Shown: positions 21,335-35,803 of the stretch, in pieces
Position numbering within the stretch: position 1 is the stretch's first letter
Layout: every line of letters starts with the position of its first letter
From: Chloroflexota bacterium
GTDB lineage: Bacteria > Chloroflexota > UBA11872
Length of the DNA: 64,000 bases
Reading direction: 5' to 3'
Assembly: GCA_965262745.1 (NCBI GenBank)
Contig: OZ253558.1
Span: 1,090,567-1,154,566 of the forward strand
The notes under the pieces: generated by a model
The model's input: only the letters and a program-made list of their open reading frames with translations
Databases searched by the model: none
Told to the model about the DNA's origin: nothing
Position numbers and translations under genes: made by a program

Positions 21335-22618
21335 CTACTGCTGATCGAAGTAGTCGCTGTACCAGAGACCGCCAAGCGGCAGACCTTCTTCGACCAGAGC
21401 TCGGACAATATGATCGTTGCTCGCCCTAGTAATGGTCGCGAAGCCGTCCGCCGATTTCTCCAAGATCCACGTTTCCTCGGGTGTCAGAGCATCGACGAAG
21501 TAGGGTTGGTGGGTCGTGACAAATATCTGGGGCGCGTTCCGGCGCCCCGAGGCGTGGCGGCGAAACTCATCGGCCAGCAATTCCAATAGTTTGTGATAGA
21601 GACCGTTTTCCGGCTCCTCGATGCATATGAACGGCGGCGGCTGCTGATCCTCCAGCATCAGCAGATACGCAAAGACTTTGAGTGTGCCGTCGGACACTTG
21701 CTGCGCGTAGAACGGGTCAGCGAAGCCCTTATCGTTGAAGCGCAGCAGCAAGCGACCGTCAGGACTGCGTTCCGTATCGATGCGGTCGATGCCGGGAACT
21801 CTCCTGGCAATCCGTCCAAGGATGCGTTCAAACCTATCGCGGTGCTCCCGCTCCATGAATTGCACGACGTTGCCCAGATTGTCTCCGTGGATATTCAGAT
21901 GCCGCTGGGGTCCAGCCATTGGCAACCCGCGCGCGGCGTCCGGCGTAAAGTAGCTCAGATACCAGCCTTCGATAAACTGACGAAAAGCCGCGATTCTCGG
22001 ATGTTGCTTCAGTGCCCCCAGGGTTGCAATACCCAGCTTGCGCTTGTCCTGAAGTTCAATAATCTCCCGTCCCGCGCCCTCCTCGTTTTCTAACCCTCTC
22101 AGTAGCGCTGAAAGGTCCACTTCCAGTCGGCCATCTTCATCGACCTGCAAACCCTGCACCTCGCCTGCCCAGGCCATTCCCTTGCCCTCGTTCAGCATCA
22201 AGAACGAAAATGGCCAGCCGCGTCTCTGTCCTCGACGACGCTGGCGCAGGCGTTCGCGTGAAACATAGGGGCGGCCCGAATCGTCCTTGTCGATCGCAAA
22301 TTCGTATGTGATCGGTCGAGCCTTCGAATCCTGCCGGTAATAGACCTCGAACTCGATGGGGGTGTCGCTACCCTGTGATCGTATGCGGTCGAACCCGCCG
22401 CGCCCACGCACGTCGCAGGCCTCTTCGACACCGAGCTTCAGGCAATCCGCCAGGAATCCGAAAGCATCGAATAGGGAGCTCTTGCCAACCCCGTTCTTTC
22501 CAATCACCGCCGTCAGCGGCTCTAACGGCTGGGCGGCAGGCGTGTTCCACAGCTTGCCTAGGGTGATGTCGTGCAACACCCGGTAGTTCCTGATGCCGAT
22601 GCCTTCGATACGGGCCAT
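21335..22618 (-). CDS. AAA_21/ABC-type ATPase (OLD/AbiL/PARIS-AriA-like ATPase component)
   Basis: There is a Walker A (GKNGVGKSSLFDAF) near the N-terminus, and a distal signature/Walker B region (FICIEEPENGLYHKLL...VTTHQP). Confidence 0.75.
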   Translation of the reverse strand: MARIEGIGIRNYRVLHDITLGKLWNTPAAQPLEPLTAVIGKNGVGKSSLFDAFGFLADCLKLGVEEACDVRGRGGFDRIRSQGSDTPIEFEVYYRQDSKARPITYEFAIDKDDSGRPYVSRERLRQRRRGQRRGWPFSFLMLNEGKGMAWAGEVQGLQVDEDGRLEVDLSALLRGLENEEGAGREIIELQDKRKLGIATLGALKQHPRIAAFRQFIEGWYLSYFTPDAARGLPMAGPQRHLNIHGDNLGNVVQFMEREHRDRFERILGRIARRVPGIDRIDTERSPDGRLLLRFNDKGFADPFYAQQVSDGTLKVFAYLLMLEDQQPPPFICIEEPENGLYHKLLELLADEFRRHASGRRNAPQIFVTTHQPYFVDALTPEETWILEKSADGFATITRASNDHIVRALVEEGLPLGGLWYSDYFDQQ

Positions 22619-22788
22619 GCGGTCAGTTTCTCTCGTTTAGCGCAGCACCGCTAGCAGCATAGCGTCGAGCAGGCTTGTTTCCACTGCCGCGAGGACAGAG
22701 AGCGGATAGGGCGTTGGCCAAGCGCCCGCGGTCGACGTCGCGGACCTTCTCGGGCCTCCAACAGATTGCGCACTGTCGCCACTTCGAA

Positions 22789-22835
22789 TGGTGCCCAGGA
22801 CGGGACTGGAACCCGCACAGCCCGGAGGCCACCAG
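22789..22835 (-). other. tRNA 3'-end remnant (variable arm, T-arm, acceptor 3' strand and CCA), a probable island att-site duplicate
   Basis: The reverse complement (tggcctccgggctgtgcgggttccagtcccgtcctgggcacca) matches the 3' 45 nt of the intact tRNA-Leu at 35720..35803 with 3 mismatches. The 5' part does not fold as a tRNA. Confidence 0.6.
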
Positions 22836-23031
22836 ACCCTAAACCGAGGTCAACCCACCGCCAGGCACTGCCGCAGCGCCTTGACCATGGCCGGTCGCTG
22901 CTCACGGCTCCTCGTGCCGACCGGATTGGCGATCGCCCGCATCACGACCTGTTGATCGGACGCTGAGAAGCGTAATCCCCGGCGCTGCTCCGCGGATGCC
23001 TGATACCCGCCACAGCCTCTGTCGCCCTGCA

Positions 23032-26000
23032 CTACGCGGGTGTGAGCGGGCTCTCAGCCTCGTCGTGGGCCATTTCAAACAGCCGCGCCAGGGCGTTGGC
23101 CAGGTGCATTTGGCGGGGCGTGCGGCAGCGCACGGCGAGCAAGCCCGGACTGGCCACGACTACCGCCAGGCACTTGGCGCGGCTGGTGGCGACGTTCAAG
23201 CGGTTGAGGCTGTAGAGAAACTCCATGCCACGCGGCGCCTCGTCGGCAGAGCTTGTGGCCATCGAGTAGATGGAAATCGGGGCTTCCTGGCCTTGGAACT
23301 TATCGACAGTGCCGATTCGCAACTCCCGGAGCTCAGGTCGGGATGCAAGCTCCCCGATCTGGCGGTTGTAGGGCGTGATGATGAGCACGTCTTGAGCGGT
23401 CAGCGCGTGGGTCGCGCCTTCGGCGTCAGTCCATGAGGCGCGCGACCGGAGCAACCGGTCGACGCTCTCGGCAATCGCCGCCGCCTCTTCCTCGGAGTCG
23501 CTGATGCGGCGCTCGTGCGACACGGCCACGAAGCGCAGTCCTGTCCCGAGGAACGGGGACGAGCCGGCCAGGTCCAAGTTCTCGCGGCCGGGATGCGCGC
23601 GCAGGTTGTCCTCGTAGAAGACTTCCGAGGTGAACTCACAGATGCTGGGATGCAGGCGCCACGTGCCGTCGAGAAACAGTCCGAAGTCCTTGGGCATCAC
23701 TCGTGCGTCATCGAGTACGTGCGCCAGCACCGAACGATCCGCGCCTGGCGGATGCACGCCCTGCAGCGGCTGATCCAGCTGCTGCGGGTCGCCCAGCAGC
23801 AACAGGCTCTTGGCGCAACGTGCCGAGGCCAAGGCGTCGGCCAGCGACATCTGCCCGGCCTCGTCGATGCAGAGCACGTCCACCAAGCCCTCCGCGTCGT
23901 CACGCGCCCAGAGCCAGGAAGTTCCGCCCACCACGTCAAGCGTTCCTCTGGCCAGGGCCATGCACGCATCCTCGGTTTTCGCGAGGGGTACCGCGTCCGC
24001 GAATTCGGGCTCGGCTGACCGGTAGCGGGTCCGCTGGCCGATCCTGACCGGGACGCCGCGCTCGCGGGCCACCCGCGCCGTCTTCTCCAGCAACTCACCG
24101 ATCACCTTGTGGCTGTTGGCCGTCACGCCCACGCGCTTACCCGCCTCCACGAGGTCCACGATCATCTCGGCACCAACCGTGCTCTTGCCCGAGCCGGGCG
24201 GTCCCTGGATCGCCAGGTAGCTCTCGTCCAGCATCTGCACCAGCCGCCGGGCCGCATCCTGCGCATCCTCGCCGTCCGCCGTCAGCGGTGATCCGTCGGT
24301 CTGTCCAACCCGTGGCGGACAGCGCATCAACAGGTCTCGGGCCGCCTGGTACGGCCCGGGCGCGTCGATCCCGTGCTCAATCACCCACGTCGCCAGATTC
24401 CGAAGGCTCGACGGTTTTGGCCCTGGATTGACATATTCGTAGGCGATCAGTGATGTCGGCGCCGGTGCTGCCCGGTTGGACCCAACCTTCAGGTCGATCA
24501 CGCCGTCTCGATCGTTTACCGCGACCACTTCGCCGATCGAATTTCCGTGCTGATCGCGTGGCCGGTCGCCGACTTCGATCTTGTGGTCCTGTGGCGGGAA
24601 CCGAAAGCTGTAGATCTTGGAACGCGACTTGGGCCTGGGATCGGCCCGACTGCGCACGTAGCTGAGCTGGCCCAGCGCGTCCGTCTCGCCGACTCGCTCT
24701 TCGTCGGTGAGTTCGTCCTTCAGGTGGAAATAGCGCCACCAGAACGCCTTATCCTCGCGCCGGTGCCAGTCGAGCAGCTGCGCCAGGAGCCACCGCCCGC
24801 GTTGGCTCGGATCTTCGAGCGACCTGCCGTCCGTCAAGTCCTCGGGCAGGCCCGCTGTCAGCTGGGCCACGAGTTCCTGCACCTCCCGCTGGGCCTCCGT
24901 GTCCTCGGTCTCTTCGGGAGGCTTGACCGTAGGACGCGGCGGGGCTTCGGCGCCGACTTCGTTCACCAGCGCGGCGCGCTGGACTTCCAGCCACTCGCGC
25001 AGATAGCAGGTGGAAAGACAGTCGTCGCGGTTATAGGCCCTGATCTTCTCCAGCAGGCCGTCCCGGTCGGTCCCGTCCTCGGGTTCGAGCCAGTTCTCGA
25101 ACTCCACGATGCTCTCGCCCGCATCGCGTAGATCGATTTCCCGCTTGAATCCGTAGAGCGGCTCCAGCCGCTTGATGGAGTAGCTCTCCACCGAAGCGCG
25201 AACGCCCTGCCGCACGACGCGGTAGAGGTCCACGAACACACTGCCCCGCAGCAGCTGGTCCACCTCTGACTCACGCGTGGCGTAGCGCCCCGCCAGCCGC
25301 TTCATTGCCCCTGTCTCGTAGGGCGCGTAGTGATAGACGTGCATGTCCGGGTGGCCAGTCCGGCGCTCCATGATGAGGTCGATACAGTCCTCGAACGCCT
25401 TACGCTCGGCCGCCGGCGACACGGTGCCGTCCGCGATCGACCAGAACGCGTGAAACCTGGGGTCGCCCGCGGCGTCCGTCTGTCCCGGCTCGATCACGCC
25501 GAAGAGGTAGTCGATGCCGTCGATCTCGTCCGAGCCATAGAACGGATCGCCCTCCAGGTCCAGGAACAGGTCACCGGGCGACGGCTCCGGCAACAGCCAG
25601 AGACCGCGGTCCGGAACAACCACGTCCTCGCGGTCGCGTTCGGGCGGGATGCGCTCCGAGATCACCTGGCCTTCGCCGCGCACCTGGATCGCCGCCTGGG
25701 CCTGCACCCGGGCCAGCGAAACCGGGCTGACGCCGTCCAGCTGTTCCGGCAGCGGCCGCGACGGATCGGCCAGCCCACCCCGTGTGGTCACGTCAATGGC
25801 GTGCAGGGCGCGTCGCTGGCGGGACGTCAGGTTGGCCACCAACGCCAGATCGTCTTCCCGACGCCACTGGGCTCGGCATTCCTGGTTCCACCTGCAGAAG
25901 TCGCAGTGCTGCATGGGTTCCGGCTTGGTCGAGATTGGAAACGCCGATTCGGAGTCGTCGAGCAGCGTCTCGAACTGCCGCGCGACCAGGCGGTAGTAGG

Positions 26001-26577
26001 CCCCGTAGTCGGCGACCCGAAGGCTCGCGGTCCTGCGCGCGACGCCGCCCAGCACCAGATGCATCCGTTCCGGCGGCCGCCCCTGCATTCTCCCGAGCAG
26101 GTCTGAATACATGCTGATCTGCAAGACGGCGGGGGCCGTGGGTTGCCGCGCCAGCTTGGTGTCCCAGACTTCATAGCTCCATGCCCCGAGGTCGCTGGGT
26201 TTCTCGACGCGGCGCAGGAAGTCCGCGTACCCCAGCCGCCGGTCGCCGAGCAGCACGGCCTGGTAGATCACGTCAACGCCATCTCGCATCGCCTGCAGCG
26301 TGGCGGCGTGCTCGGATTCAACCACTCGGGACGGAGACACGGTGTCGGGCGGCCGGATTTCCCTGATTCCCAGGTTCTCGGCGTCCAGCGATTCCAGGAA
26401 GCGCGCCTCATACTCCCGACCGCGCCGCGCCAAACGGTCGAGCACTGGGTCGTCACGAAACGGCCGTTTGAGGTCATGCAGAACCGCGGCGCGCTCCAGG
26501 TTGGCCAGGTGCCGGCACTCCAGGAACGCGACCAGATCGGTGGCGGAGTAGACCAGACGCCTATCAATCAGTTGCAT
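23032..26577 (-). CDS. RecB-like nuclease + RNaseH-like domain + SF1 (Upf1/Dna2-like) helicase fusion protein (TM0106-family N-terminal region)
   Basis: The 1181-aa ORF has an N-terminal RecB/Cas4-like region with a Cys cluster (HCDFCRWNQEC). It has a C-terminal Walker A (GPPGSGKST), a Walker B (CIDEAGQ) and SF1 motifs (GDPQQL, VATSRAK). Confidence 0.7.
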   Translation of the reverse strand: MQLIDRRLVYSATDLVAFLECRHLANLERAAVLHDLKRPFRDDPVLDRLARRGREYEARFLESLDAENLGIREIRPPDTVSPSRVVESEHAATLQAMRDGVDVIYQAVLLGDRRLGYADFLRRVEKPSDLGAWSYEVWDTKLARQPTAPAVLQISMYSDLLGRMQGRPPERMHLVLGGVARRTASLRVADYGAYYRLVARQFETLLDDSESAFPISTKPEPMQHCDFCRWNQECRAQWRREDDLALVANLTSRQRRALHAIDVTTRGGLADPSRPLPEQLDGVSPVSLARVQAQAAIQVRGEGQVISERIPPERDREDVVVPDRGLWLLPEPSPGDLFLDLEGDPFYGSDEIDGIDYLFGVIEPGQTDAAGDPRFHAFWSIADGTVSPAAERKAFEDCIDLIMERRTGHPDMHVYHYAPYETGAMKRLAGRYATRESEVDQLLRGSVFVDLYRVVRQGVRASVESYSIKRLEPLYGFKREIDLRDAGESIVEFENWLEPEDGTDRDGLLEKIRAYNRDDCLSTCYLREWLEVQRAALVNEVGAEAPPRPTVKPPEETEDTEAQREVQELVAQLTAGLPEDLTDGRSLEDPSQRGRWLLAQLLDWHRREDKAFWWRYFHLKDELTDEERVGETDALGQLSYVRSRADPRPKSRSKIYSFRFPPQDHKIEVGDRPRDQHGNSIGEVVAVNDRDGVIDLKVGSNRAAPAPTSLIAYEYVNPGPKPSSLRNLATWVIEHGIDAPGPYQAARDLLMRCPPRVGQTDGSPLTADGEDAQDAARRLVQMLDESYLAIQGPPGSGKSTVGAEMIVDLVEAGKRVGVTANSHKVIGELLEKTARVARERGVPVRIGQRTRYRSAEPEFADAVPLAKTEDACMALARGTLDVVGGTSWLWARDDAEGLVDVLCIDEAGQMSLADALASARCAKSLLLLGDPQQLDQPLQGVHPPGADRSVLAHVLDDARVMPKDFGLFLDGTWRLHPSICEFTSEVFYEDNLRAHPGRENLDLAGSSPFLGTGLRFVAVSHERRISDSEEEAAAIAESVDRLLRSRASWTDAEGATHALTAQDVLIITPYNRQIGELASRPELRELRIGTVDKFQGQEAPISIYSMATSSADEAPRGMEFLYSLNRLNVATSRAKCLAVVVASPGLLAVRCRTPRQMHLANALARLFEMAHDEAESPLTPA

Positions 26578-26723: not shown

Positions 26724-27452
26724 TCACAGCGGCAGCAGGTGCCCCGCTTCGCGCAGCCGCTGACGCCGCTGTTGCGCGTCCGGCATCGCTCTAACCACCA
26801 GCCCCCAGAAGTCCGGCCCGTGGTTCTTTATTGACAGGTGCGCCAGCTCGTGCACCACGATGTACTCGACAAGGGCAGGCTCCAACATCATCGCCCGCCA
26901 GTTGAAGCGCAGCGTGCCGTCCGGCGCGCAGCTCCCCCAGCGCCGGCGTTGATCGCGGATCAGCACGCGCGGCCAGTCGCCGTGACCCAGGCGCGGCCAC
27001 CAGCGCTCCACGCTAGTTGGCAGGCGGTCTGCCGCCCGCCTCCGATACCAGGCCACGAGGGCGCGCTGGGCACTGCGGGTTCGCTCACTATCGGACGCCC
27101 CCGTTGGCACCGTGACGCGGAACCGCCAGTGATCGAAGCGCACGCTCACCGACCTGACGTCGGCGTGCTCGACCAGCAAACGCACGTTGCGGCCCAGGTA
27201 AGGCAACGTCTCACCGCTCACAAAGCGCTTCGGCGCGGCGGCCAGCGTCTCCGCGGTGCTGCGGCGCATGATCCAGGCCGCCCGCTTGCGCACGATCCCC
27301 CGCAACTCCTCGGCGGGCGTCGAAACAGGCGCGGCGACCTGGACCCCGCCCCCGTCCACGGTGATCTGCACCGTCTTCCTGCGCCGCTGACTGCGCTGCA
27401 CCTCGAACTCGATCGTGCTCTCGCCGAAACGGACGGATCCCCGCTCACTCAC
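26724..27452 (-). CDS. DUF45/YgjP-like M48-type zinc metallohydrolase
   Basis: The HExxH motif (VVHELAHL) sits in a YgjP-like context. The ORF overlaps the hsdR stop by 4 nt. Confidence 0.65.
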   Translation of the reverse strand: MSERGSVRFGESTIEFEVQRSQRRRKTVQITVDGGGVQVAAPVSTPAEELRGIVRKRAAWIMRRSTAETLAAAPKRFVSGETLPYLGRNVRLLVEHADVRSVSVRFDHWRFRVTVPTGASDSERTRSAQRALVAWYRRRAADRLPTSVERWWPRLGHGDWPRVLIRDQRRRWGSCAPDGTLRFNWRAMMLEPALVEYIVVHELAHLSIKNHGPDFWGLVVRAMPDAQQRRQRLREAGHLLPL

Positions 27453-30400
27453 GATCCCGACCTCTGACGCGCCACGTCCACGATCTGGTGCGCCAGCTCG
27501 TCCAAGCGCTCTTCCGTGAAGTCCCCCGTGCCTCGCAGCTCCCGCTTGATATCCCGGCGCATCTCGCGCTGCACTTCAAGGTTCGACTGCCAATCGATCA
27601 CGTCGCTGTGACGCTGGATGGCGCGTTCGATCGCGCGCGCCACGGCCGTCGTCTGCTCGTCCAGGGCAGTGCGATAGGAGCCTGAAGCTTCGCCCGCGTC
27701 CACGCTCGGAGAGGCCAGCAACTCGTAGACCGCAAACGACACTGGCGAGAGCCCGTGCTGCGCGGCGATGTCCGCTTCGCTTTGGACCTGCTTGCGCAAT
27801 TCGGCCAGTCGCCGGCAGGCCTCGGCAGCGTCGATCAGCCGCTGACGCAGTTCCTGGATGATGCGGTCCAATTGCTCCGAGAGCTTCTCATAGAACGCCG
27901 GGTTTTCCGCCAGTCGCTCGTTGATCTGGGCGCGGACCGCGTGCTCCATCAGCGACGCCCGCGCTTCGTCGTGCGGCAGGTCGGCAATCTTCGCCTCGAA
28001 GTCCTGATCCAGGATCGAGAGCGGCTGCATCAGGCTGCGCACCTTGGCGTCGATGCGCTCGTCGATCAGGCCCTTCACCTTCGCGCCAATATCGGTCCAA
28101 TCCAACTCCGCGTCCTCGCGCAGGAACTGCGCCCGCACATAGGCGCGAATCGCCGTCAGCCGCGCCAACCGCTGTACGTAGGGCTCGGCGCCCGGGTCCG
28201 GCAGGTAGCGGTCCATCAGGCGGGCGAACTGACGGTAGTCCGCGCTGAATCGCTCGAACAGGTCGGCCTTGAACGCGTCCTCCGAGGCGGCATCCGGCGC
28301 AAACAGCGCCGCGCAGTCCCACACGTTGCTCAGGTCGCGGCCCTTGAAGTGCGACTCCGCCTGCACCGCCGCGGCCTCGATCGCCGGCCCGGGATCCTCC
28401 TCCAGCTCGCGCATGGAGTCCTGCACGTCTGGCCAGTCGAACGTCGCCAGCGCCGCCTCCAGGTCCCGCGAGACCCCGTGATAGTCGATCACCAGGCCGT
28501 GCCGCTTCTCCGTGTCCACGTTGTCCGGCCGGTGCGCGAAGCGCCGGTTCACGCGGGCAATCGCCTGCAGCAGGCCGTGTTCCCGCAGCCCACGGTCCAG
28601 GTAGAGCACCTGCTCCACCGGCGCGTCAAACCCGGTCAGCAGCATGTCCACCACCACCAGGATCTGCGGCTCGCCCTCGGGGTCCACGAACGCGCCGGTG
28701 ATCTGCTCCTGGTTGAGATCGCGCGCCGCGGCGAACTCCGGGCCGTCGTTGTTATCGGTGGTGATGATCGGATAGGCGCTCAGCCCAAAGGTCTTCAGGC
28801 GCTCCGCGTAGCGCAGCGCCGCCGCCCGGCTGGGCGCCACCACCTGCGCCTTGAACCCGTTCGGCTGCACCTTGGCCTTGAAGTGCTGGGCAATATCCAG
28901 CGCGATCATCTCGATGCGACGCTCCGCCTCCGCCACCGTCTCCTTGTTCGCGTAGCGCCGCCGGATGCGCGCCTGCGTCTCCTCGGACTCCTGGCCGAAC
29001 ATCTCCTCGAACAGCGTGTCCAGCGTCTCCGGCCCCTCGATGTGCAGTTCCGGCAGCCGCGCCTCGTAGAGGATCGGCACGGTGGCGCCGTCGGCGACCG
29101 ACTGCGGAATCGTGTAGGAGTCGATCAGCGAACCGAATCGCCGCATCGTGCTGTGACCGAAGTCCTTGTCGATGGGCGTGCCCGTAAAGCCGATCAGCGC
29201 TGCGTTGGGAAGGGCCTTGGACATGCGCGCGCCCAGCAATCCGTATTGCGTGCGGTGCGCCTCGTCCACCATCACCACCACCTGCTCCGATGGGTTCAGC
29301 ACATCCAGCCGGCCCTTGGGAGTCGTCAGCGCGTCCTCGAACTTCTGGATTGTCGTCATCACCGTGCGGCCGCCGCCGCTTCTCAGCAGCCGGCGCAGGT
29401 TGCGGGCGTTGGTCGCCTGCTCAGGCGCCGGAAAGCCGCAGCGTTGGAAGGTGCCGCTGATCTGCCGGTCCAACTGCGTGCGGTCGGTCACCACCACGAT
29501 CGTCGGGTTGTGCAGCCGCGGCTCGCGCCGCAGCTTGGTGGCCAGCCACAGCATCGTCAGCGACTTGCCCGAGCCCTGCGTGTGCCACACCACCCCGCCG
29601 CGCTCCTCGGGACGGCGGCCCGTCAACAATCGCTCCAGCGCCGCTCGCACCGCGCGGTACTGCTGATAGCGCGGCAGCTTCTTCACCAGCTTGCCGGCCT
29701 GCGGCTCGTAGACCACGTAGTCGCGCAGGATGTCCAGTAGCGTGGCCGGCGCCAGCAGCCCCACGATCAGCCGCGCCTGGCCCTCTGGTTCCACCCCGAA
29801 GCGCTGCCGCGCCTCGGCTTCCGAATAGGGCAGCACCGACTTCCATTCCACGTAGGCGTTCTCGGGCGCGCCCAGCGTCGCGTACGCCGCCGCGGCTCCG
29901 CAGTGCGCCACGCACAGCAGGTTGGTGTGGAACAGCTCCGGCGCGCCCGTCCCGTGCCACTCGGGCCCCGCTTCTTGGTAGCGACGCAGCTGGCGCACCG
30001 CCTGCGTCCGCCACACGTCCAGCAGCGACGGCGATTTCGCCTCCATCACCACCAGCGGCACGCCGTTCACGAACAACACCAGGTCCGGCTTCACCACCCG
30101 CTGGTCGTCTTCCTGGTTGCGCCGCTCGTTACCCCGACGCACCCGGAACTGCGTCGTCACCACGAACTCGTTCAGCCCGCCCTCCGGATGATCGAAGTCG
30201 AAGAAGCGCGCAATCCGGCTCTGGCGACCACTGGGCGTGTCCACCCCCAGCGGCATGCCGTAGATCAGGTGCTCGTGCACGCGCTGATTGCGGGCCATGC
30301 CGCTGAAGTCGCTGCGCTCCAGATCAGCCACCACCCAGTCCGCCTGCGACTCGGTCATCCAGGCGTTCAACCGCAGCAACGCCCGCCGCAACCGCCCCTT

Positions 30401-30538
30401 TAGCAACACCTCCCGCTCGTCCCCGCGCTCCGCCGCCAGCGTTTCGCGTGGGACGTACGTCCAGCCCAGTCTTTCAAGCAGCTCCCGCGCCGGGTTCTCG
30501 GCGTGATGGAGCTCATTGAGCCTGGCGGGAGTGGTCAT
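27449..30538 (-). CDS. hsdR: Type I restriction enzyme R subunit (HsdR)
   Basis: The 1029-aa ORF has helicase motifs (DEAHRTQ, FTGTP) in HsdR-type architecture. It lies in an operon with hsdS and hsdM. Confidence 0.9.
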   Translation of the reverse strand: MTTPARLNELHHAENPARELLERLGWTYVPRETLAAERGDEREVLLKGRLRRALLRLNAWMTESQADWVVADLERSDFSGMARNQRVHEHLIYGMPLGVDTPSGRQSRIARFFDFDHPEGGLNEFVVTTQFRVRRGNERRNQEDDQRVVKPDLVLFVNGVPLVVMEAKSPSLLDVWRTQAVRQLRRYQEAGPEWHGTGAPELFHTNLLCVAHCGAAAAYATLGAPENAYVEWKSVLPYSEAEARQRFGVEPEGQARLIVGLLAPATLLDILRDYVVYEPQAGKLVKKLPRYQQYRAVRAALERLLTGRRPEERGGVVWHTQGSGKSLTMLWLATKLRREPRLHNPTIVVVTDRTQLDRQISGTFQRCGFPAPEQATNARNLRRLLRSGGGRTVMTTIQKFEDALTTPKGRLDVLNPSEQVVVMVDEAHRTQYGLLGARMSKALPNAALIGFTGTPIDKDFGHSTMRRFGSLIDSYTIPQSVADGATVPILYEARLPELHIEGPETLDTLFEEMFGQESEETQARIRRRYANKETVAEAERRIEMIALDIAQHFKAKVQPNGFKAQVVAPSRAAALRYAERLKTFGLSAYPIITTDNNDGPEFAAARDLNQEQITGAFVDPEGEPQILVVVDMLLTGFDAPVEQVLYLDRGLREHGLLQAIARVNRRFAHRPDNVDTEKRHGLVIDYHGVSRDLEAALATFDWPDVQDSMRELEEDPGPAIEAAAVQAESHFKGRDLSNVWDCAALFAPDAASEDAFKADLFERFSADYRQFARLMDRYLPDPGAEPYVQRLARLTAIRAYVRAQFLREDAELDWTDIGAKVKGLIDERIDAKVRSLMQPLSILDQDFEAKIADLPHDEARASLMEHAVRAQINERLAENPAFYEKLSEQLDRIIQELRQRLIDAAEACRRLAELRKQVQSEADIAAQHGLSPVSFAVYELLASPSVDAGEASGSYRTALDEQTTAVARAIERAIQRHSDVIDWQSNLEVQREMRRDIKRELRGTGDFTEERLDELAHQIVDVARQRSGS

Positions 30539-30906
30539 GGGCTCTCCCCGCGGGAGTCCTCCAACATCTTTCGCAGCTGCGGCAGCATGCTTGGGATCGC
30601 ATCTTGAATTATCGACCAGATGATGACGTCACTGATGTGCAAATAGGAGTGCGCCAAGCGATTGCGGACCCCGATGATTGCGCGCCAGGGAATCATGGGA
30701 TATGCCTCACGCGCGTCGGATGGGATATGCGTTGCCGCCTCACCGATCAGTTGGATGTTGCGCAACGTGGCGTCGTGGATGAGACCGTCGGCTGCGAAGG
30801 CGTCCTGATCCAGTCCATCCGTATATGACAGGACTTTCTCGGCGAACTCGATCATGTCCTGAACGTAAAGATTCCAGCGTCGACCTTCTTCATGGGTCTC
30901 ACACAT
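30535..30906 (-). CDS. HepT-like (DUF86) toxin of a HepT/MNT toxin-antitoxin pair
   Basis: The RX4HXY-like motif is present (RNRLAHSY). The start at 30906 overlaps the MNT stop by 8 nt. Confidence 0.65.
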   Translation of the reverse strand: MCETHEEGRRWNLYVQDMIEFAEKVLSYTDGLDQDAFAADGLIHDATLRNIQLIGEAATHIPSDAREAYPMIPWRAIIGVRNRLAHSYLHISDVIIWSIIQDAIPSMLPQLRKMLEDSRGESP

Positions 30907-31216
30907 CCACGGCCTCCCGTTCCACGTGCGGACGCATTTCGGCCCGAACGTCCTCCCGGGTCGCCAGTTCCACCGGTCGTTGCAGCAGGTCTTCCAGGTA
31001 GAACTGGGCTCCGAAGTAGGTCCGCCAGTTCGGAGGAGCGTCGAACCGCACCAGGATGTCAACGTCGCTCCCGTCGGTACCTTCGTCCCGGGCATAGGAG
31101 CCGAACAGGGCGAGATCCGCGACGCCGAATCGCTCCGCCAGCACCGGCCGGTGGGCTCGGAGCATCTCCAGCACTTCCGCTCTGGTCATGGCGTCACTCC
31201 GTCGAGGCGGGCGCAT
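30899..31216 (-). CDS. MNT-type nucleotidyltransferase antitoxin (PF01909-like)
   Basis: The 105-aa ORF has the GS...D.D nucleotidyltransferase motif (LFGSYARDEGTDGSDVDILV). Confidence 0.75.
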   Translation of the reverse strand: MRPPRRSDAMTRAEVLEMLRAHRPVLAERFGVADLALFGSYARDEGTDGSDVDILVRFDAPPNWRTYFGAQFYLEDLLQRPVELATREDVRAEMRPHVEREAVDV

Positions 31217-31370
31217 GCATTACGACTGGCAGCCTGGCATCCTCGTGTTCGCCCCCGCGCTCCGCCGCCAGTGTTTCCCGTGGCACGAAGGTCGAACCCA
31301 GCTTCTCAAGCAGCTCTCGGGCCGGGTTCTCGGCGTGATGGAGCGCGTTGAGCTTCGCGGGCTGGCTCAC
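31194..31370 (-). pseudogene. Duplicated 5' end of hsdR (about 40 codons), open as a 58-codon GTG-initiated ORF ending just before the MNT start
   Basis: The reverse complement translates to VSQPAKLNALHHAENPARELLEKLGSTFVPRETLAAERGG. The authentic HsdR N-terminus is MTTPARLNELHHAENPARELLERLGWTYVPRETLAAERGD. DNA identity to 30400..30538 is about 85%. Confidence 0.7.
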
Positions 31371-31924
31371 GACCTATTCGACCCTGTGGCCTTGCTGATG
31401 GCTCGACTTGCACCGTCCAGCCGACGCATTAGGTGATTCGCCAGCGTCAGAAGCTCAAGTGCAACGTCAGAATCATCCTCGAGCCCGTGCTCATGCGCAC
31501 GCGGATTCCTAATGCCCGTCATCGCCCCGGCATAGATATCCATGTAGCCAAGCTGTTCGTCACGGTCAGAGTTCGACTGAAAATCATTCATACAAAGAGT
31601 GGGTGAATTAACACTAAATGCTTTTCGCATAAGACTCGCACCATCCTGACCCAATATACCCGACTTTTGCTTGACTTCATTGTTCATGCATTTCAAAGCT
31701 TCTTCAACAGCCCGCGCATAGTGACCATCAGCAAACAATTGGCGGCTCACTGAACGAAGCGCCTCGCTTGTCACCACATCGTCGAATCGGTCAAGGACGG
31801 TTCGCTCGTCGGAGTGAGCACGATCCCGCCTTGATAACGTTCTCCCCAAGCCTGCCTCGTCTGCATCCATTTGAACATCGTTGGCTGCCTTGAGCCAGCC
31901 ACGATAACCTCCACGGTTAGCCAA
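31367..31924 (-). CDS. Hypothetical protein embedded in the type I R-M operon (possibly TIGR02391/PF09509-like)
   Basis: This is a 185-aa, lower-GC ORF. Recognisable blocks include ALKCMNNEVKQK and IRNPRAHE...LELLTLANHLMRRL. The family call is from memory only. Confidence 0.35.
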   Translation of the reverse strand: MANRGGYRGWLKAANDVQMDADEAGLGRTLSRRDRAHSDERTVLDRFDDVVTSEALRSVSRQLFADGHYARAVEEALKCMNNEVKQKSGILGQDGASLMRKAFSVNSPTLCMNDFQSNSDRDEQLGYMDIYAGAMTGIRNPRAHEHGLEDDSDVALELLTLANHLMRRLDGASRAISKATGSNRS

Positions 31925-31927
31925 GCG

Positions 31928-32716
31928 TCATTCATCCTTCCGACCGTACAGGTGTCGTGCCATGCTTCGAAAGATTTGGTCAATTTGATCGGCTGTAGCG
32001 CTAGAATCAATATGAATCTGACTGTCAATGTGTACAGATGGGTCAGCAGTCGCTACAGATACCGTAGTAGCCGAATTCAGTAAATCGTTGCCTTGAGGCG
32101 ATGGGTCCGCGCTTGGCTGAACATCATCCGGGATTTGTGATTTCGCACCGTCTGGCATGTTTTCTAGGGCATGGCCGATCGTTATCAGCCGCTCACTTCC
32201 ACTTACCTGTTGGATGATCCCAAGGTAGCGTGCATTTGCCATAACGATATTCCCAGCTTCCGCACGGTATCCATCGGGAACCCCTACCAGACCCAGTTCA
32301 TCTTTCAGCACATCGTCGGCAGGGACTCGCTGGTTCTTTAGCCGGCCGTACAGCTGGTTGAACGGATCGATCCGACCAATCGCATGCTCGAATTCCATCC
32401 GTAGCTTCGCCTGCCGTTCAACCGATTCATCGACGATAGATCTACCCTCTGGTGTGAGTTCCAGGAAATCCGCTTGATAGCCTCCTGATGTAAGGCCATA
32501 GCGTCCTGAACTCGTAACAAGCTCGCGGCTCGGACCGCTTTCCGGGGCACGGCCCAGCCTGTCAAACAGGGTTAGTCGCCGCATCCGGTCTCCCGCGCCT
32601 TCCATGGCGATGGTGCGTGCAATCGATAGCGCGTCCTCAAAGGTGACAGTCGGATAGGTCTTGGATGGACCGCGGCTTCGACGCGGGCTCGATGCGGTGT
32701 CCTTGGAATCTGTCAT
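31928..32716 (-). CDS. Hypothetical protein (262 aa), lower GC, between hsdS and the preceding unknown gene
   Basis: The ORF is clean and packed 4 nt from its neighbours. I recognise no family. Confidence 0.4.
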   Translation of the reverse strand: MTDSKDTASSPRRSRGPSKTYPTVTFEDALSIARTIAMEGAGDRMRRLTLFDRLGRAPESGPSRELVTSSGRYGLTSGGYQADFLELTPEGRSIVDESVERQAKLRMEFEHAIGRIDPFNQLYGRLKNQRVPADDVLKDELGLVGVPDGYRAEAGNIVMANARYLGIIQQVSGSERLITIGHALENMPDGAKSQIPDDVQPSADPSPQGNDLLNSATTVSVATADPSVHIDSQIHIDSSATADQIDQIFRSMARHLYGRKDE

Positions 32717-34011
32717 CGTTCCCCCTCTGTCGCTATCGGAACCCTCAAGGATCCCGTCAACAGTGTGTCCGTCATTGACGCTTTTAGCGATTGTACAGAG
32801 AATCGCTCCTGGAACGTCATTTCAATCGCACCCCTCGCACCGGCTATGATCTCGGCGATAGCCCGCTGCTCGCAAAGCGATGGGAGGGCAACGGTGAGTG
32901 ATCCTACTTGCTCAAGGTTGATATTCGCCTGCGCCAACTCTGAGCGAAGATCATCGACCTGCTTCTGTACCATCTTTCCGCTTAGCATGAGCGCCGTGAA
33001 CTCGGGCGTAGCCCGCTGATTCTTGGCCAATCGAACAATTGCGAGAGCCTGATTAACATTCGCGGGAAGGTGTTCACTCGTAATCAGAGCTGATCGACCG
33101 AGTGCACCAGCAATGCTCAAGAGGATGTCACCGGCTTGTAATATCGATCGCGAAAGCATCTGGTGGGTTTCACCGGTGATAAAGCGCAGTTCTCCACCTG
33201 TCACCAACCCGTCAGCGATGTTCTCGACGCGCAGGAATCGCACACCTGCTGGCACGTACTCGTGGCCCAAGGTGGTTGGCGTCGTTCCCTTGGTGATTCG
33301 CTCACATATCGCCTTCAGCCGCACGACTTGCCAGTCTGCCGGGATGATTCCCAGGCCGGGCACGCTGCGCCATTCGGTATGCCAGCCGGGAACGCCGCGG
33401 GTGAGGAGGTCGTGGAGCAGGGCGTCGCGCAGGCGCTCGGTGGCGCTGATGACCGCCTCGGTGTGTTCGATGGCCTCGTCAATGGCATCCAGCACGGCGG
33501 CGATAGCACACTGTTCCGACAGCGGTGGTAGAAGAATCGGTAGGGAACGCGTTGCATCCAGCGTCAGACCGAATCGCGTGATCCCGTTCGCCACACGAGC
33601 AAACTCTCGGCGTGATGCCTGAGAGCCCAATGCTTCTGCAAGGAATTGACCTTCTACGACCGTCGGCCGCGGTCGCGCCATTCCAAGGTGATAGCCGCAC
33701 AAGACATTAGGCATCGTGTCTGTGACATAAGCGGCGATACCTATTTCGTCAGGGGTTTCGGAGTCTTTTGTGAAGAGCACGTCACCACGCTTCAGGCTCC
33801 AGCGCTTGTGCTCTTTCGCAGTCGCCGTAGCTTCCATGAACGGCATTCCAGGTCCGATGAGTCGATTGTAAAACACGTCCGTATAGTTGCAGAGTTGAAC
33901 TGGTATTTCACTGTCCATTTTCTTCTTGTCTACTCCACTAAAGGCAATAGCTGCCACGTCCCCCAGCTGCACCACTCGCCACCCGTCCGGCAACTCACTC
34001 AGATCGCGCAT
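32713..34011 (-). CDS. hsdS: Type I restriction-modification specificity subunit (HsdS)
   Basis: The ORF has two target-recognition domains separated by conserved helical spacers, and sits between hsdM and hsdR. Confidence 0.8.
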   Translation of the reverse strand: MRDLSELPDGWRVVQLGDVAAIAFSGVDKKKMDSEIPVQLCNYTDVFYNRLIGPGMPFMEATATAKEHKRWSLKRGDVLFTKDSETPDEIGIAAYVTDTMPNVLCGYHLGMARPRPTVVEGQFLAEALGSQASRREFARVANGITRFGLTLDATRSLPILLPPLSEQCAIAAVLDAIDEAIEHTEAVISATERLRDALLHDLLTRGVPGWHTEWRSVPGLGIIPADWQVVRLKAICERITKGTTPTTLGHEYVPAGVRFLRVENIADGLVTGGELRFITGETHQMLSRSILQAGDILLSIAGALGRSALITSEHLPANVNQALAIVRLAKNQRATPEFTALMLSGKMVQKQVDDLRSELAQANINLEQVGSLTVALPSLCEQRAIAEIIAGARGAIEMTFQERFSVQSLKASMTDTLLTGSLRVPIATEGER

Positions 34012-34093: not shown

Positions 34094-35623
34094 TTAGCGC
34101 TCATAACCCAGCTCCGCCAGCAGCTTGTCCATCTTCGCCACCGCCTCATCGCGCCGCCGTTCGGCCTCTCGCAGCTGCGCCAGCGCCTCCTCCACGCTGA
34201 GCACCTCTATGGGCTCGCTGGTATCCACGTAGCGGCTGATGTTGAGGTTGAAGTCGTTGGCCTCGATCTCCGCCAGGTCGGCCACGTGGGCGAAGCGCTC
34301 GACATCCTCGAAGCCGCGGTAGGCGGCGACGATCTTTTGGATGTGCTCCCGGTCCAGGAAGTTCTGCGCCTTGCCCTGGCGGAAATAGCCCTCCTGCGCC
34401 GCGTCCACGAACAGCACCTTGCCGCGCCGCTCGCTGGGCTTGGCCTTGTTGAGCACGCAGATGGCCACCGGGATGCTGGCTCCGTAGAAGAGGTTGGGCG
34501 CCAGGCCGATCACGGCCTCGAAAAGGTCGCTTTCGACGATGCCGCGGCGGATCTTGCCCTCGGCGCCACCACGGAACAGCACCCCGTGCGGCATCACCAC
34601 GCCCACCATGCCCGTCATGGTGGTGACGGCCAGCATGTGCAGCAGGAACGCCAGGTCGCCCCTGGTGCGCGGCGGAATCGCGCCATAGCGGTCGAAGCGG
34701 TGATGCGGGTCGTCGGGCGCGAAATCGTGGCCCCAGTTCTTGAGGCTGAACGGGGGATTCGCGATCACCCGGTCGAAGGCCAGCAGGCGGCCGGCGTTGT
34801 CCAGCAGGCGCGGCTCGGCGATCACGTCGCCTTCCTCCAGCCGCGCGGCGGACAGCCCATGCAGCAGCAGGTTGAGCTTGCCGGCGGCCAGCGTGCCTCG
34901 GTTGCGCTCCTGCCCGTGCAGCACCAGGTTGCGCCGGTCGCCCCCCTGCTCCTGCACGAACTGCGCGGTGTAGATGAGCATGCCGCCCGAGCCGGCCGTC
35001 GGGTCGCAGATGCGCATGCCCTCACGCGGCTGCAGCAGCTCGACGATCAGCCGCACCACCGGGCGCGGGGTGTAGAACTCGCCGCCCTTCTTGCCGGCGT
35101 CGTCGGCGAACTGATTGATCAAGTATTCGTAGGCGTCGCCCAGCACGTTGTCCGAGCCGCCGTCCGCGCCGCGCAGGTTCGCGTCGCGCAGGTCAAGCTC
35201 GCTGAAGTGGTTGAGCAGTTGGCGGATGATGCGCTCGCGGTTGGCCGGGCTGCCCAGCCGGGATTCGTCGTTCCAGTTGACGCTGGTCAGCACGCCGTCC
35301 AGCCGCTGCACGTTCTCAATTTCGATGTTGTGCCCGGCCACGTTGAGGGTCTCGCCCAGGTTCATGGACGCCCTCACCAGGGCGGGCCAGCGAGCGGATT
35401 CCGGCACGAAGAACTCGTGCTCGTCGTGGTCCGTCAGTGCCGTCTGGCGCGGCACGCCCGAGGCCACGGCGGCCTCGACCTCTTCGTCGAACCGGTCCGA
35501 CAACCGCTTCAGGAACAGCACCGCAAAGATGTAGTTCTTGTAATCCGCCGCGTCGATCTGCCCGCGCAGGATGTCCGCGGCCTGCCAGAGCTTGGATTGC
35601 AGTTCCTGCTGACTGAGCGGCAT
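34094..35623 (-). CDS. hsdM: Type I restriction-modification N6-adenine DNA methyltransferase (HsdM)
   Basis: There is a SAM-binding motif, the catalytic NPPF motif (ANPPFSLKNW) and an HsdM N-terminal domain. The real start is MPLSQQELQSKLW at 35623, and the longer ORF would run into the tRNA. Confidence 0.9.
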   Translation of the reverse strand: MPLSQQELQSKLWQAADILRGQIDAADYKNYIFAVLFLKRLSDRFDEEVEAAVASGVPRQTALTDHDEHEFFVPESARWPALVRASMNLGETLNVAGHNIEIENVQRLDGVLTSVNWNDESRLGSPANRERIIRQLLNHFSELDLRDANLRGADGGSDNVLGDAYEYLINQFADDAGKKGGEFYTPRPVVRLIVELLQPREGMRICDPTAGSGGMLIYTAQFVQEQGGDRRNLVLHGQERNRGTLAAGKLNLLLHGLSAARLEEGDVIAEPRLLDNAGRLLAFDRVIANPPFSLKNWGHDFAPDDPHHRFDRYGAIPPRTRGDLAFLLHMLAVTTMTGMVGVVMPHGVLFRGGAEGKIRRGIVESDLFEAVIGLAPNLFYGASIPVAICVLNKAKPSERRGKVLFVDAAQEGYFRQGKAQNFLDREHIQKIVAAYRGFEDVERFAHVADLAEIEANDFNLNISRYVDTSEPIEVLSVEEALAQLREAERRRDEAVAKMDKLLAELGYER

Positions 35624-35719
35624 CGGTTCTCCCTGTGGCGCTGTGGGGGCGTAGGTACTGATGGCGCCGACAAGCGAGTCTCGCAGATGCTCACGGCGCG
35701 GCCGCGCGGTGTGAACGGG

Positions 35720-35803
35720 TGCCGAGGGCGGGACTCGAACCCGCACAGCCCGGAGGCCACTAGCCCCTCAAGCTAGCGCGTCTACCAATTCCGCCACCTC
35801 GGC
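35720..35803 (-). tRNA. tRNA-Leu (anticodon GAG), type II with a long variable arm
   Basis: The reverse complement gccgaggtggcggaattggtagacgcgctagcttgaggggctagtggcctccgggctgtgcgggttcgagtcccgccctcggca folds as a cloverleaf by hand. It has a 7-bp acceptor stem, a D-arm, an anticodon loop ttGAGgg, a 15-nt variable arm and a T-arm gcggg/ttcgagt/cccgc. Confidence 0.8.

Follow-up and report, generated by a model that had tools for sequence, protein, structure and literature searches.

A copy of the hsdR head upstream of an MNT-HepT pair: a probable insertion scar in a Chloroflexota type I restriction-modification operon

The window analyzed here, a stretch of 64,000 nucleotides (nt) from a Chloroflexota bacterium (GCA_965262745.1, contig OZ253558.1, positions 1,090,567 to 1,154,566), carries a type I restriction-modification (R-M) operon in which a toxin-antitoxin (TA) pair, MNT-HepT, lies between hsdS and hsdR. 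A partial copy of the first codons of hsdR stands upstream of MNT and is called the relic below. The relic is probably an old insertion scar that now offers portable homology for the exchange of cassettes, with MNT-HepT expressed by way of the R-M transcript, and it probably keeps translation coupled from one gene to the next. The features on which the argument turns are as follows.

31242-31370, minus strand: hsdR-head relic, a copy of hsdR codons 1-43 with a GTG start (pairwise alignment; profile E = 9e-23)
31194-31370, minus strand: 58-codon GTG open reading frame (ORF) made of the relic and a read-through tail; stop TGA at 31194-31196
31190-31241, minus strand: spacer of 52 nt, holding the GGAG that serves MNT
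30899-31189, minus strand: MNT antitoxin (MntA-like), 96 amino acids (aa); PF01909, E = 1.3e-15, with a match to PDB 1WOT
30535-30906, minus strand: HepT toxin, 123 aa; PF01934, E = 4.7e-26
30410-30538, minus strand: head of the intact hsdR, codons 1-43, the partner of the relic (pairwise alignment)
27449-30538, minus strand: hsdR, intact and uninterrupted, 1029 aa; PF04313, PF18766, PF22679 and PF11867

The relic and the genes it borders

Counted from their start codons, the relic and the hsdR head agree at 104 of 129 nt (80.6%) and at 33 of 43 aa without an indel, the longest identical runs being 24 and 19 nt. A direct-repeat search returned 30409-30529 and 31241-31361 (121 nt, 83%) as the sole long direct repeat in 9.5 kb. 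The original prediction had placed a direct repeat of the hsdR 5' end upstream of MNT on the minus strand, and both methods find it there; its proposed identity of about 85% and length of about 40 codons are revised to 81-83% and 43 codons. The similarity is not due to chance, since the relic scored E = 9e-23 against a profile of 80 intact hsdR heads. Homology ends after codon 43, and the 82 nt that lie 5' of the two starts are unrelated (35%). The two copies are 832 nt apart and the insert between them consists of the spacer, MNT and HepT only, with no mobility gene.

The minus-strand order of the operon is tRNA-Leu, hsdM, hsdS, ORF262, Ymh, the 58-codon ORF, MNT, HepT, hsdR and YgjP. ORF calls and Pfam matches agree with the order remnant, MNT, HepT, hsdR that had been proposed, and with the proposed overlaps: the MNT stop and HepT start share 8 nt (ATGTGTGA, 30899-30906), and the HepT stop and hsdR start overlap as ATGA (30535-30538). 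Upstream, the Ymh stop overlaps the relic start as GTGA. The 58-codon GTG frame was correctly recognized, and a counterpart of 58 codons is called in the Logan contigs L082 and L083 (related loci carry handles of this form throughout); its stop lies 4 nt before the MNT ATG at 31189, not about 20 nt as first stated. That ATG is conserved, the 96-aa product being called in L084, L085 and L089 as well, and is preceded by GGAG 9 nt 5' of it. No sigma-70-like promoter or intrinsic terminator was found on the minus strand from hsdM to YgjP, a weak negative because Chloroflexota signals may differ. The description of the TA pair as wedged into the R-M operon holds in that the genes are co-directional, packed by overlaps and have no promoter- or terminator-like site on that strand. 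It is inferred from this arrangement that MNT-HepT would be co-transcribed with the R-M genes.

The spacer has a history of its own. It is similar to the MNT leader of L002 (p<0.0005), and that leader resembles hsdR nt 2-41 (p<0.0005). A direct match between the spacer and hsdR is not significant, and the connection is thus transitive through L002. The spacer is probably a decayed, older and shorter hsdR leader that travels with MNT-HepT and is nested inside the newer relic.

Relics and cassettes in related loci

A scan of one genome per species yielded 80 loci for comparison, all from Chloroflexota metagenome-assembled genomes (MAGs) with the operon hsdM-hsdS-[cassettes]-hsdR-YgjP; the analysis as a whole covers one bacterial lineage, represented mostly by MAGs. 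An nhmmer profile of the first 240 nt of intact hsdR genes was searched against 81 sources including the window. Extra hsdR-head fragments numbered 32 in 24 of the 81 sources, or 31 in 23 of 80 when the window is left out. All 32 share the strand of hsdR and have their starts at profile positions 1-14, while their ends fall at 43-48 nt (8), 54-82 (12), 103-122 (5), 130 (3) and 141-183 (4). Thirty of the 31 fragments outside the window lie between hsdS and hsdR and the remaining one is in a locus without an hsdS match. The interval between hsdS and hsdR is 10-11 nt in three cassette-free loci and 0.67-7 kb in 74 loci, and the share of loci with a relic varies with its length as follows.

Interval 0.6-1.2 kb: relic in 2 of 30 loci
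Interval 1.2-2 kb: relic in 3 of 17 loci
Interval 2-3 kb: relic in 12 of 21 loci
Interval >3 kb: relic in 5 of 6 loci, with 10 relics together

Relics are commoner in the longer intervals, which indicates that they accumulate as genes are inserted. The cassettes are mostly toxin modules (MNT/HepT, antitoxin with PIN, Ymh HEPN, DUF2971-like and several unknown families), and the genes that follow relics include MNT/HepT, PIN with antitoxin, Ymh and DUF2971. It had been recognized beforehand that an insertion would be in question if hsdR-head fragments lay upstream of hsdR in many genomes regardless of a TA pair. Such fragments are indeed common with or without TA genes; they sit among genes inserted between hsdS and hsdR, and therefore generalize the insertion reading rather than refute it. 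Arrays occur in several loci. L005 (6446-10001) has four hsdR-head fragments between MNT, PIN and MNT-HepT cassettes, L025 (8048-10001) has an array with three fragments, and L047 (8586-10001) has two tandem leader-MNT-HepT units.

The junctions between relic and cassette fall into classes. A break at +130 followed by the same 52-nt spacer is found in the window, L023, L001, L084, L085 and the Logan contigs L082 and L083. A leader of about 42 nt that ends CACGCCGAG/GAG before MNT is found in L005 (twice), L011, L019, L047 (twice), L021 and L002, and provides the Shine-Dalgarno sequence of MNT. L056 and L061 share a junction at about +78 before a MazE/PIN cassette, and a related TA pair in L074 has its break at +121. 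Among close HepT relatives, L089 has a Ymh-like gene, a relic of positions 1-63, a different spacer and then MNT; in L086 a 111-codon ORF lies directly upstream of MNT with a relic of positions 1-156 further up. Judging by these alignments, the junctions are inherited with the cassette and several independent junctions exist. The 30 nt upstream of the relics are unrelated to each other and no motif is shared at the cassette ends.

The mosaic nature of the window emerges from comparison with its nearest relatives. Relative to L023, the second half of hsdS, ORF262 and Ymh are 97-100% identical, with a synonymous divergence (dS) of about 0.03. The relic differs at 14 of 129 positions (9 synonymous, 5 non-synonymous; the first 37 nt identical), the spacer at 7 of 52, and dS is 0.09-0.10 for MNT-HepT and 0.77 for hsdR. 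Given such different values for the TA pair and for hsdR, the hsdR beside the relic is not simply its sister copy in at least one of the two loci. Relative to L001, HepT has a dS of 0.06 and hsdR nt 130-900 are 94% identical, and the upstream neighbor is an unrelated 442-aa gene. The nearest relative is L084, in which the hsdR head is 99.2%, hsdR nt 130-729 are 99.3% and hsdM is 95% identical to the window. The block in common is continuous and spans the relic through YgjP; beyond its upstream edge, 2 kb of L084 are unrelated to the window and L001-like, with a different second half of hsdS. L084 (ENA ERZ25071132) is a 4x long-read contig in which many indel errors break the gene calls.

The head of the relic follows the upstream module, being L001-like in L084 (ATGACCACTC...) and L023-like in the window (GTGAGCCAGCCC...), and a crossover can thus be placed inside the relic. 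The simplest reading would be that a segment comprising the second half of hsdS, ORF262, Ymh and relic nt 1-37 recombined into an L084-like locus, with one crossover in the conserved middle of hsdS and the other inside the relic. The hsdR head is a second breakpoint, as the identity of the window to L023, L001 and L086 falls just after the hsdR ATG. Across the data set, the 350 nt that precede hsdR are unrelated in 45 of the 56 locus pairs with at least 90% identity over hsdR nt 130-729, which shows that cassettes turn over much faster than hsdR diverges.

Tight spacing is a general property of these loci. The gene upstream overlaps the hsdR ATG by 4 nt in 33 of 79 loci and lies within 14 nt of it in 22 more. 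In about two-thirds of cases a relic ORF stops at or overlaps the start of the following gene, or continues into that gene in frame. In five loci the next cassette gene carries at its 5' end, in frame, the hsdR start and first 14-25 codons.

L005, 8313-8621: in-frame hsdR-head fusion
L006, 9154-9384: in-frame hsdR-head fusion
L019, 9291-9632: in-frame hsdR-head fusion
L025, 8048-8557: in-frame hsdR-head fusion
L047, 9302-9640: in-frame hsdR-head fusion

Cases outside this operon type were also identified. L090 (3718-4450) has, among housekeeping genes, an MNT-HepT pair whose HepT is 80% identical to that of the window; its neighbors are an IS110 transposase gene and, downstream, rnc and smc. 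A decayed hsdR head of about 70-80 nt, its start codon mutated to CTG, directly follows the HepT stop while hsdR itself is absent, implying that the cassette took a piece of hsdR with it when it left an hsdR locus. In L096-L099, MNT-HepT abuts a gene for a 930-aa N6/N4 methyltransferase in a ResIII-containing operon, and an 84-nt copy (94-98%) of nt 20-103 of the methyltransferase gene lies upstream of MNT. That copy sits in a 79-codon ORF with a methyltransferase-like start and an ATGA overlap with MNT (e.g. L098 3482-4672). By alignment, the architecture is that of the window with another target gene, and its repeat is young. L096-L099 also have a second MNT copy upstream with a degraded partner and may represent a second cassette array, on a different R-M type. 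No flanking repeats were found around the free-standing MNT-HepT pairs of L090-L095.

Origin, spread and possible roles of the relic

The most probable account of these observations has two steps. In the first, an incoming MNT-HepT cassette with its own hsdR start would have recombined into the first 130 nt of an hsdR and left the relic behind. More generally, a cassette with an attached hsdR head would be joined illegitimately into the first 40-180 nt of a resident hsdR, whether by hsdR-anchored homology-facilitated illegitimate recombination, by template switching or by a long-target-duplication route, and survival would be limited to products in which hsdR is again intact and coupled. The founding event would be old and shared with other Chloroflexota loci, the unit having later been moved and re-flanked by homologous recombination. 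In the second step, both flanks of the relic-cassette-hsdR unit match the head of any related hsdR, which would allow the unit to spread by ordinary homologous recombination. Possible forms are a double crossover, or a circle that pops out between the direct repeats and re-enters by a single crossover; given the short identical runs between the repeats (24 and 19 nt), pop-out would be rare in the window. In this operon family TA and HEPN cassettes gather between hsdS and hsdR, and hsdR-head relics would mark the points of insertion.

Several points weigh against this account. No insert-free allele of the window's Ymh-hsdR junction was found, and the founding event is thus reconstructed rather than observed; the only close Ymh relatives, L082 and L083, carry the L023 allele with relic and MNT, an arrangement of Ymh followed directly by an intact hsdR occurs only in the distant relatives L016 and L063, and metagenome scans with Ymh and with HepT gave no useful matches. 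Neither a circular or excised intermediate nor a cassette-less hybrid site was seen. A patch of the relic specific to the window (nt 38-115) has no identified donor, its best match being 86%. Among the intact heads in the data set, that of its own hsdR is nearest to the relic (81%, on a par with that of L046), and a relic is most similar to the hsdR of its own locus in 8 of 13 loci, so that a true local duplication may have taken place at the founding event. Divergence in the first 129 nt of hsdR generally exceeds that in nt 130-729 by a few points, also where two loci share their cassette, and for that reason the extra divergence of the head was rejected as specific evidence of recombination. 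Four distant plasmid type I loci are free of relics, two of them also of cassettes. Relic ORFs that reach the next gene are partly expected, stop codons being rare in DNA of 65% G+C, and folding of the relic/MNT junction gave z = +1.2 with no covariation. Finally, some of the loci used for comparison come from error-containing MAG contigs assembled from long reads at low coverage (L084 at 4x; L085, ERZ25067264, at 10x).

One further proposal is compatible with a scar origin and concerns the role of the relic today. It may be kept mainly as a functional upstream ORF or leader, a ribosome relay from Ymh to MNT that sets the MNT:HepT:HsdR ratio; this is put forward tentatively, as possible rather than probable. 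Ribosomes that finish Ymh could re-initiate where the two frames overlap (GTGA) and would then stop 4 nt short of MNT, the relic ORF acting as the relay. The suggestion in the original prediction that the relic may act as an upstream ORF coupling TA expression fits the geometry of the window and of other loci, and translational coupling is inferred here on that geometry. The position of the start and stop and the GGAG in the 3' end of the ORF agree with a relay; MNT, however, has its own Shine-Dalgarno sequence and the relic start a poor one. The relic ORF of L001 and L085 is frameshifted by a 1-nt indel and nevertheless ends by overlapping MNT as ATGA, as does the methyltransferase relic ORF of L098. 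The same frameshift in L001 demonstrates that the peptide itself is not conserved, and long open frames arise by chance in G+C-rich DNA. A translated role is favored by the relics that supply, in frame, the N-terminus of the following gene (L005, L006, L019, L025 and L047). The excess of synonymous differences between the relics of the window and L023 (9 to 5) would also favor it, but is equally explained by exchange with functional hsdR heads. A conserved RNA structure was not found, and a regulatory hairpin at the relic/MNT junction is unsupported by the folding and covariation results given above.

A one-off local insertion of the TA pair into this hsdR, with a long target duplication of about 43 codons whose copies diverged in place to leave a relic with no role, is unlikely. 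Insertion with long target duplication is an already described class (PMC2853133), the best intact match of the relic is its own hsdR head, and the 94-98% repeats of L096-L099 demonstrate that recent gene-head duplications beside MNT-HepT do occur. However, the junction and spacer recur in at least four other loci in which dS reaches 0.77 for hsdR and is 0.06-0.17 for the TA pairs. L084 has the block from relic to YgjP in common but a different upstream module, the crossover falling within the relic, and the 19% divergence of the two copies far exceeds that of the Ymh module from L023 (dS 0.03). The original prediction of an insertion that duplicated this hsdR is therefore upheld in part. The relic marks an insertion into an hsdR head, but it is not a fresh local duplication, because the copies differ by 19% and the +130 junction and spacer recur elsewhere.

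Less likely still is a dedicated, site-specific and integron-like capture by an unknown recombinase that recognizes a site in the hsdR head. Such a mechanism would suit the arrays, in which up to four cassettes are bounded by relics (L005, L025), the constant orientation and an insertion point always within the first 183 nt of one gene. The relic ends, however, are spread over 43-183 nt with no single core, and a site-specific att core was rejected on these grounds. No integrase gene was noted in the operon of the window or its flanks, nor among the genes called in loci that a protein look-up had retrieved, and no recombinase gene is evident in the cassettes examined. Junction classes follow cassette lineages, with no conserved motif visible at the cassette ends. 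A leftover of a decayed hsdR paralog or second R-M system, or an assembly artifact, is highly improbable: decay is frequent among type I loci, and repeats may be collapsed or duplicated in MAG assemblies, but only the first 43-183 nt of hsdR were found in all 32 cases, starting within the first 14 nt, and the same structure is present in independent assemblies from different samples (L001, L023, L082-L085).

If the relic is an insertion scar that has become portable homology, a broader proposal might be entertained, although it is speculative and the odds are against it. The head of a gene, hsdR here and a methyltransferase elsewhere, might serve as a recombinase-free, integron-like capture site. 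Cassettes composed of a leader, genes and the first codons of the target would enter by homologous recombination, the target would stay intact and coupled, and a relic would be left each time, giving rise to ordered arrays of TA and defense genes.

The surrounding operon and comparison with known systems

The remaining genes of the operon are listed below.

35718-35803, minus strand: tRNA-Leu(GAG), directly 5' of the R-M operon (ARAGORN and Rfam)
34094-35623, minus strand: hsdM; PF02384 and PF12161, 74-93% aa identity to hsdM of the 80 loci
32713-34011, minus strand: hsdS; PF01420 twice
31928-32716, minus strand: ORF262, function unassigned, low G+C; start overlaps the hsdS stop (ATGA)
31367-31924, minus strand: Ymh-family HEPN gene; PF09509, stop overlaps the relic start (GTGA, 31367-31370)
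26724-27452, minus strand: YgjP/M48-like metallopeptidase; PF01863, start overlaps the hsdR stop (GTGA)

As is characteristic of type I R-M systems, hsdM, hsdS and hsdR are present with their domains on one strand. The hsdR product is 64-88% identical in aa to those of the 80 loci, and YgjP follows hsdR in nearly all of them. The true hsdM start is probably the ATG at 35623, preferred because the mechanically called ORF begins at a GTG (35746) and overlaps the tRNA-Leu gene. The tRNA lies about 95 nt 5' of this likely start, and 55 nt of it are 100% identical in L046; the R-M operon may be a tRNA-linked island. An Rfam search gave no match besides the tRNA.

The gap between hsdM and hsdS is only 82 nt in the window, while 0.4-1.8 kb lie there in most of the 80 loci. 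In L017 (about 6790-6845), a 55-nt, 80% copy of the hsdS start lies about 590 nt upstream of hsdS, and L079 is similar. The mechanism that produces relics may act at this second slot.

Within hsdS, a 34-nt direct repeat (32853-32886 and 33498-33531, 645 nt apart, 76% identical) is the usual conserved central/distal repeat of the gene. Sliding identity places the start of the 97-100% match to L023 at about 33500. Since near-identity begins at the central copy of this repeat, the second target-recognition domain was apparently swapped along with the cassettes. The module from 31367 to 33500, which comprises the second half of hsdS, ORF262 and Ymh, has a G+C content of 48-57% (ORF262 itself 50-55%) compared to about 67% in hsdM and hsdR. 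Its 97-100% identity to L023 and the Logan contigs L082 and L083 points to recent transfer. ORF262 is 97% identical in aa to its counterpart in L023 and returned no match in Pfam or PADLOC. Ymh matches PD-Lambda-3_B and Aga_HEPN in PADLOC and is 98% identical in aa to L023 and 99% to P0001. Together, the two genes may form an uncharacterized defense module. Downstream of the operon (21335-26577, minus strand) are two more defense-like genes. The product of one, 1181 aa long, combines an RNase_H_2/RecB-like region with an SF1 helicase (AAA_11/AAA_12), its C-terminus matching MkoA/MkoC in PADLOC; the other encodes a 427-aa AAA_21 (AbiEii-like) ATPase. This region looks like a defense island.

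In the class I HepT/MntA type VII TA system, the RNase toxicity of HepT is neutralized by MNT AMPylation, and the motifs RX4HXY and GSX10DXD mark toxin and antitoxin, respectively (Yao et al. 2020, PMC7641770). The pair in the window resembles it in having adjacent PF01909 and PF01934 genes, antitoxin first, in overlapping frames, and both motifs can be read from the translations: G30-S31-YARDEGTDGS-D42-V-D44 in MNT and R81-NRLA-H86-S-Y88 in HepT. It differs in being embedded in an operon with no free-standing promoter region, its function being predicted from sequence. Relatives of HepT at 88-97% all occupy the same operon position, and no relative was found among PDB sequences at E <= 1e-3. 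From what is known of the family, HepT would be an RNase restrained by MNT adenylylation. In an R-M operon, the pair may stabilize the operon as an addiction module or, by analogy, may provide a second abortive layer like PrrC and DarTG2.

Toxins embedded between hsdS and hsdR are known from PrrC in EcoprrI (PMC12707154, PMC3710099) and from DarTG2 in the RRDM island of enteropathogenic Escherichia coli (EPEC), in the order rptR-hsdM-hsdS-darTG-hsdR-M48 peptidase (PMC12255303). The authors of the latter regard the hsdS-hsdR site as a potential recombination hotspot (PMC12255303). Ymh is listed as an R-M-linked HEPN family (PMC3710099), and 'guilt by embedding' has been described for defense genes (bioRxiv 10.1101/2024.01.29.577857). 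The window shares with the PrrC and DarTG2 loci the hsdS-hsdR slot, a single strand, a downstream M48/YgjP-type peptidase and a toxin module that rides the R-M operon; the cargo here is MNT-HepT and Ymh. As far as the text of these papers is searchable, they describe no hsdR-head relic, duplication or cassette array.

Insertion with long target duplication (Nobusato et al. 2000; Furuta, Abe & Kobayashi 2010, PMC2853133) is the closest published mechanism. The window resembles it in having an inserted block with no mobility gene between direct repeats longer than 30 bp (121-129 nt), and the repeats are long and variable in both cases (46-423 bp there, 43-183 nt here). The published repeats are 93-100% identical compared to 81-83% in the window, although the 94-98% of L096-L099 would fit. 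In the published cases the insert is an R-M system, whereas here a TA/HEPN cassette enters an R-M operon. In addition, the left edge of the repeat is here always at or within 14 nt of the hsdR start, and relics recur as boundaries of multi-cassette arrays and as crossover points.

The arrays recall integrons in that small, promoter-less cassettes, mostly of TA or defense genes, point in one direction, are separated by a repeated boundary element and would be expressed from a promoter upstream. Unlike an integron, the window has no intI or attC-like hairpin, and the boundary is a fragment of the downstream gene that varies in length. Integrative elements in gene ends, e.g. the 3' ends of tRNA genes, encode an integrase, use a fixed core site and carry a replacement for the end that they displace. 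They are similar to the present case in that the incoming copy keeps the target intact and the displaced original stays as a partial copy. Here, by contrast, it is the 5' end of a protein-coding gene that is replaced; breakpoints differ from case to case, and among the genes examined none was noted as a recombinase gene.

Embedded toxin and HEPN genes between hsdS and hsdR, the possible hotspot, the link of Ymh to R-M systems and long target duplications were thus already known. A literature search found papers on embedded TA genes and on long target duplication, with hsdR-head relics in none of them. As far as could be found, the use of a downstream gene's head as a cassette boundary, its recurrence in arrays and its role in crossovers appear to be undescribed.

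Many defense genes are embedded in the operons of other defense systems, and the question they raise is how genes enter without breaking the host operon. These Chloroflexota loci hold a readable record of such entries, in which each insertion at the hsdR head leaves a dated relic that later serves as a crossover point. They provide a testable mechanism for the loading and reshuffling of defense operons, a signature for genome-wide searches, namely the first codons of a downstream gene copied in front of an embedded cassette, and a means of ordering acquisition events in time.

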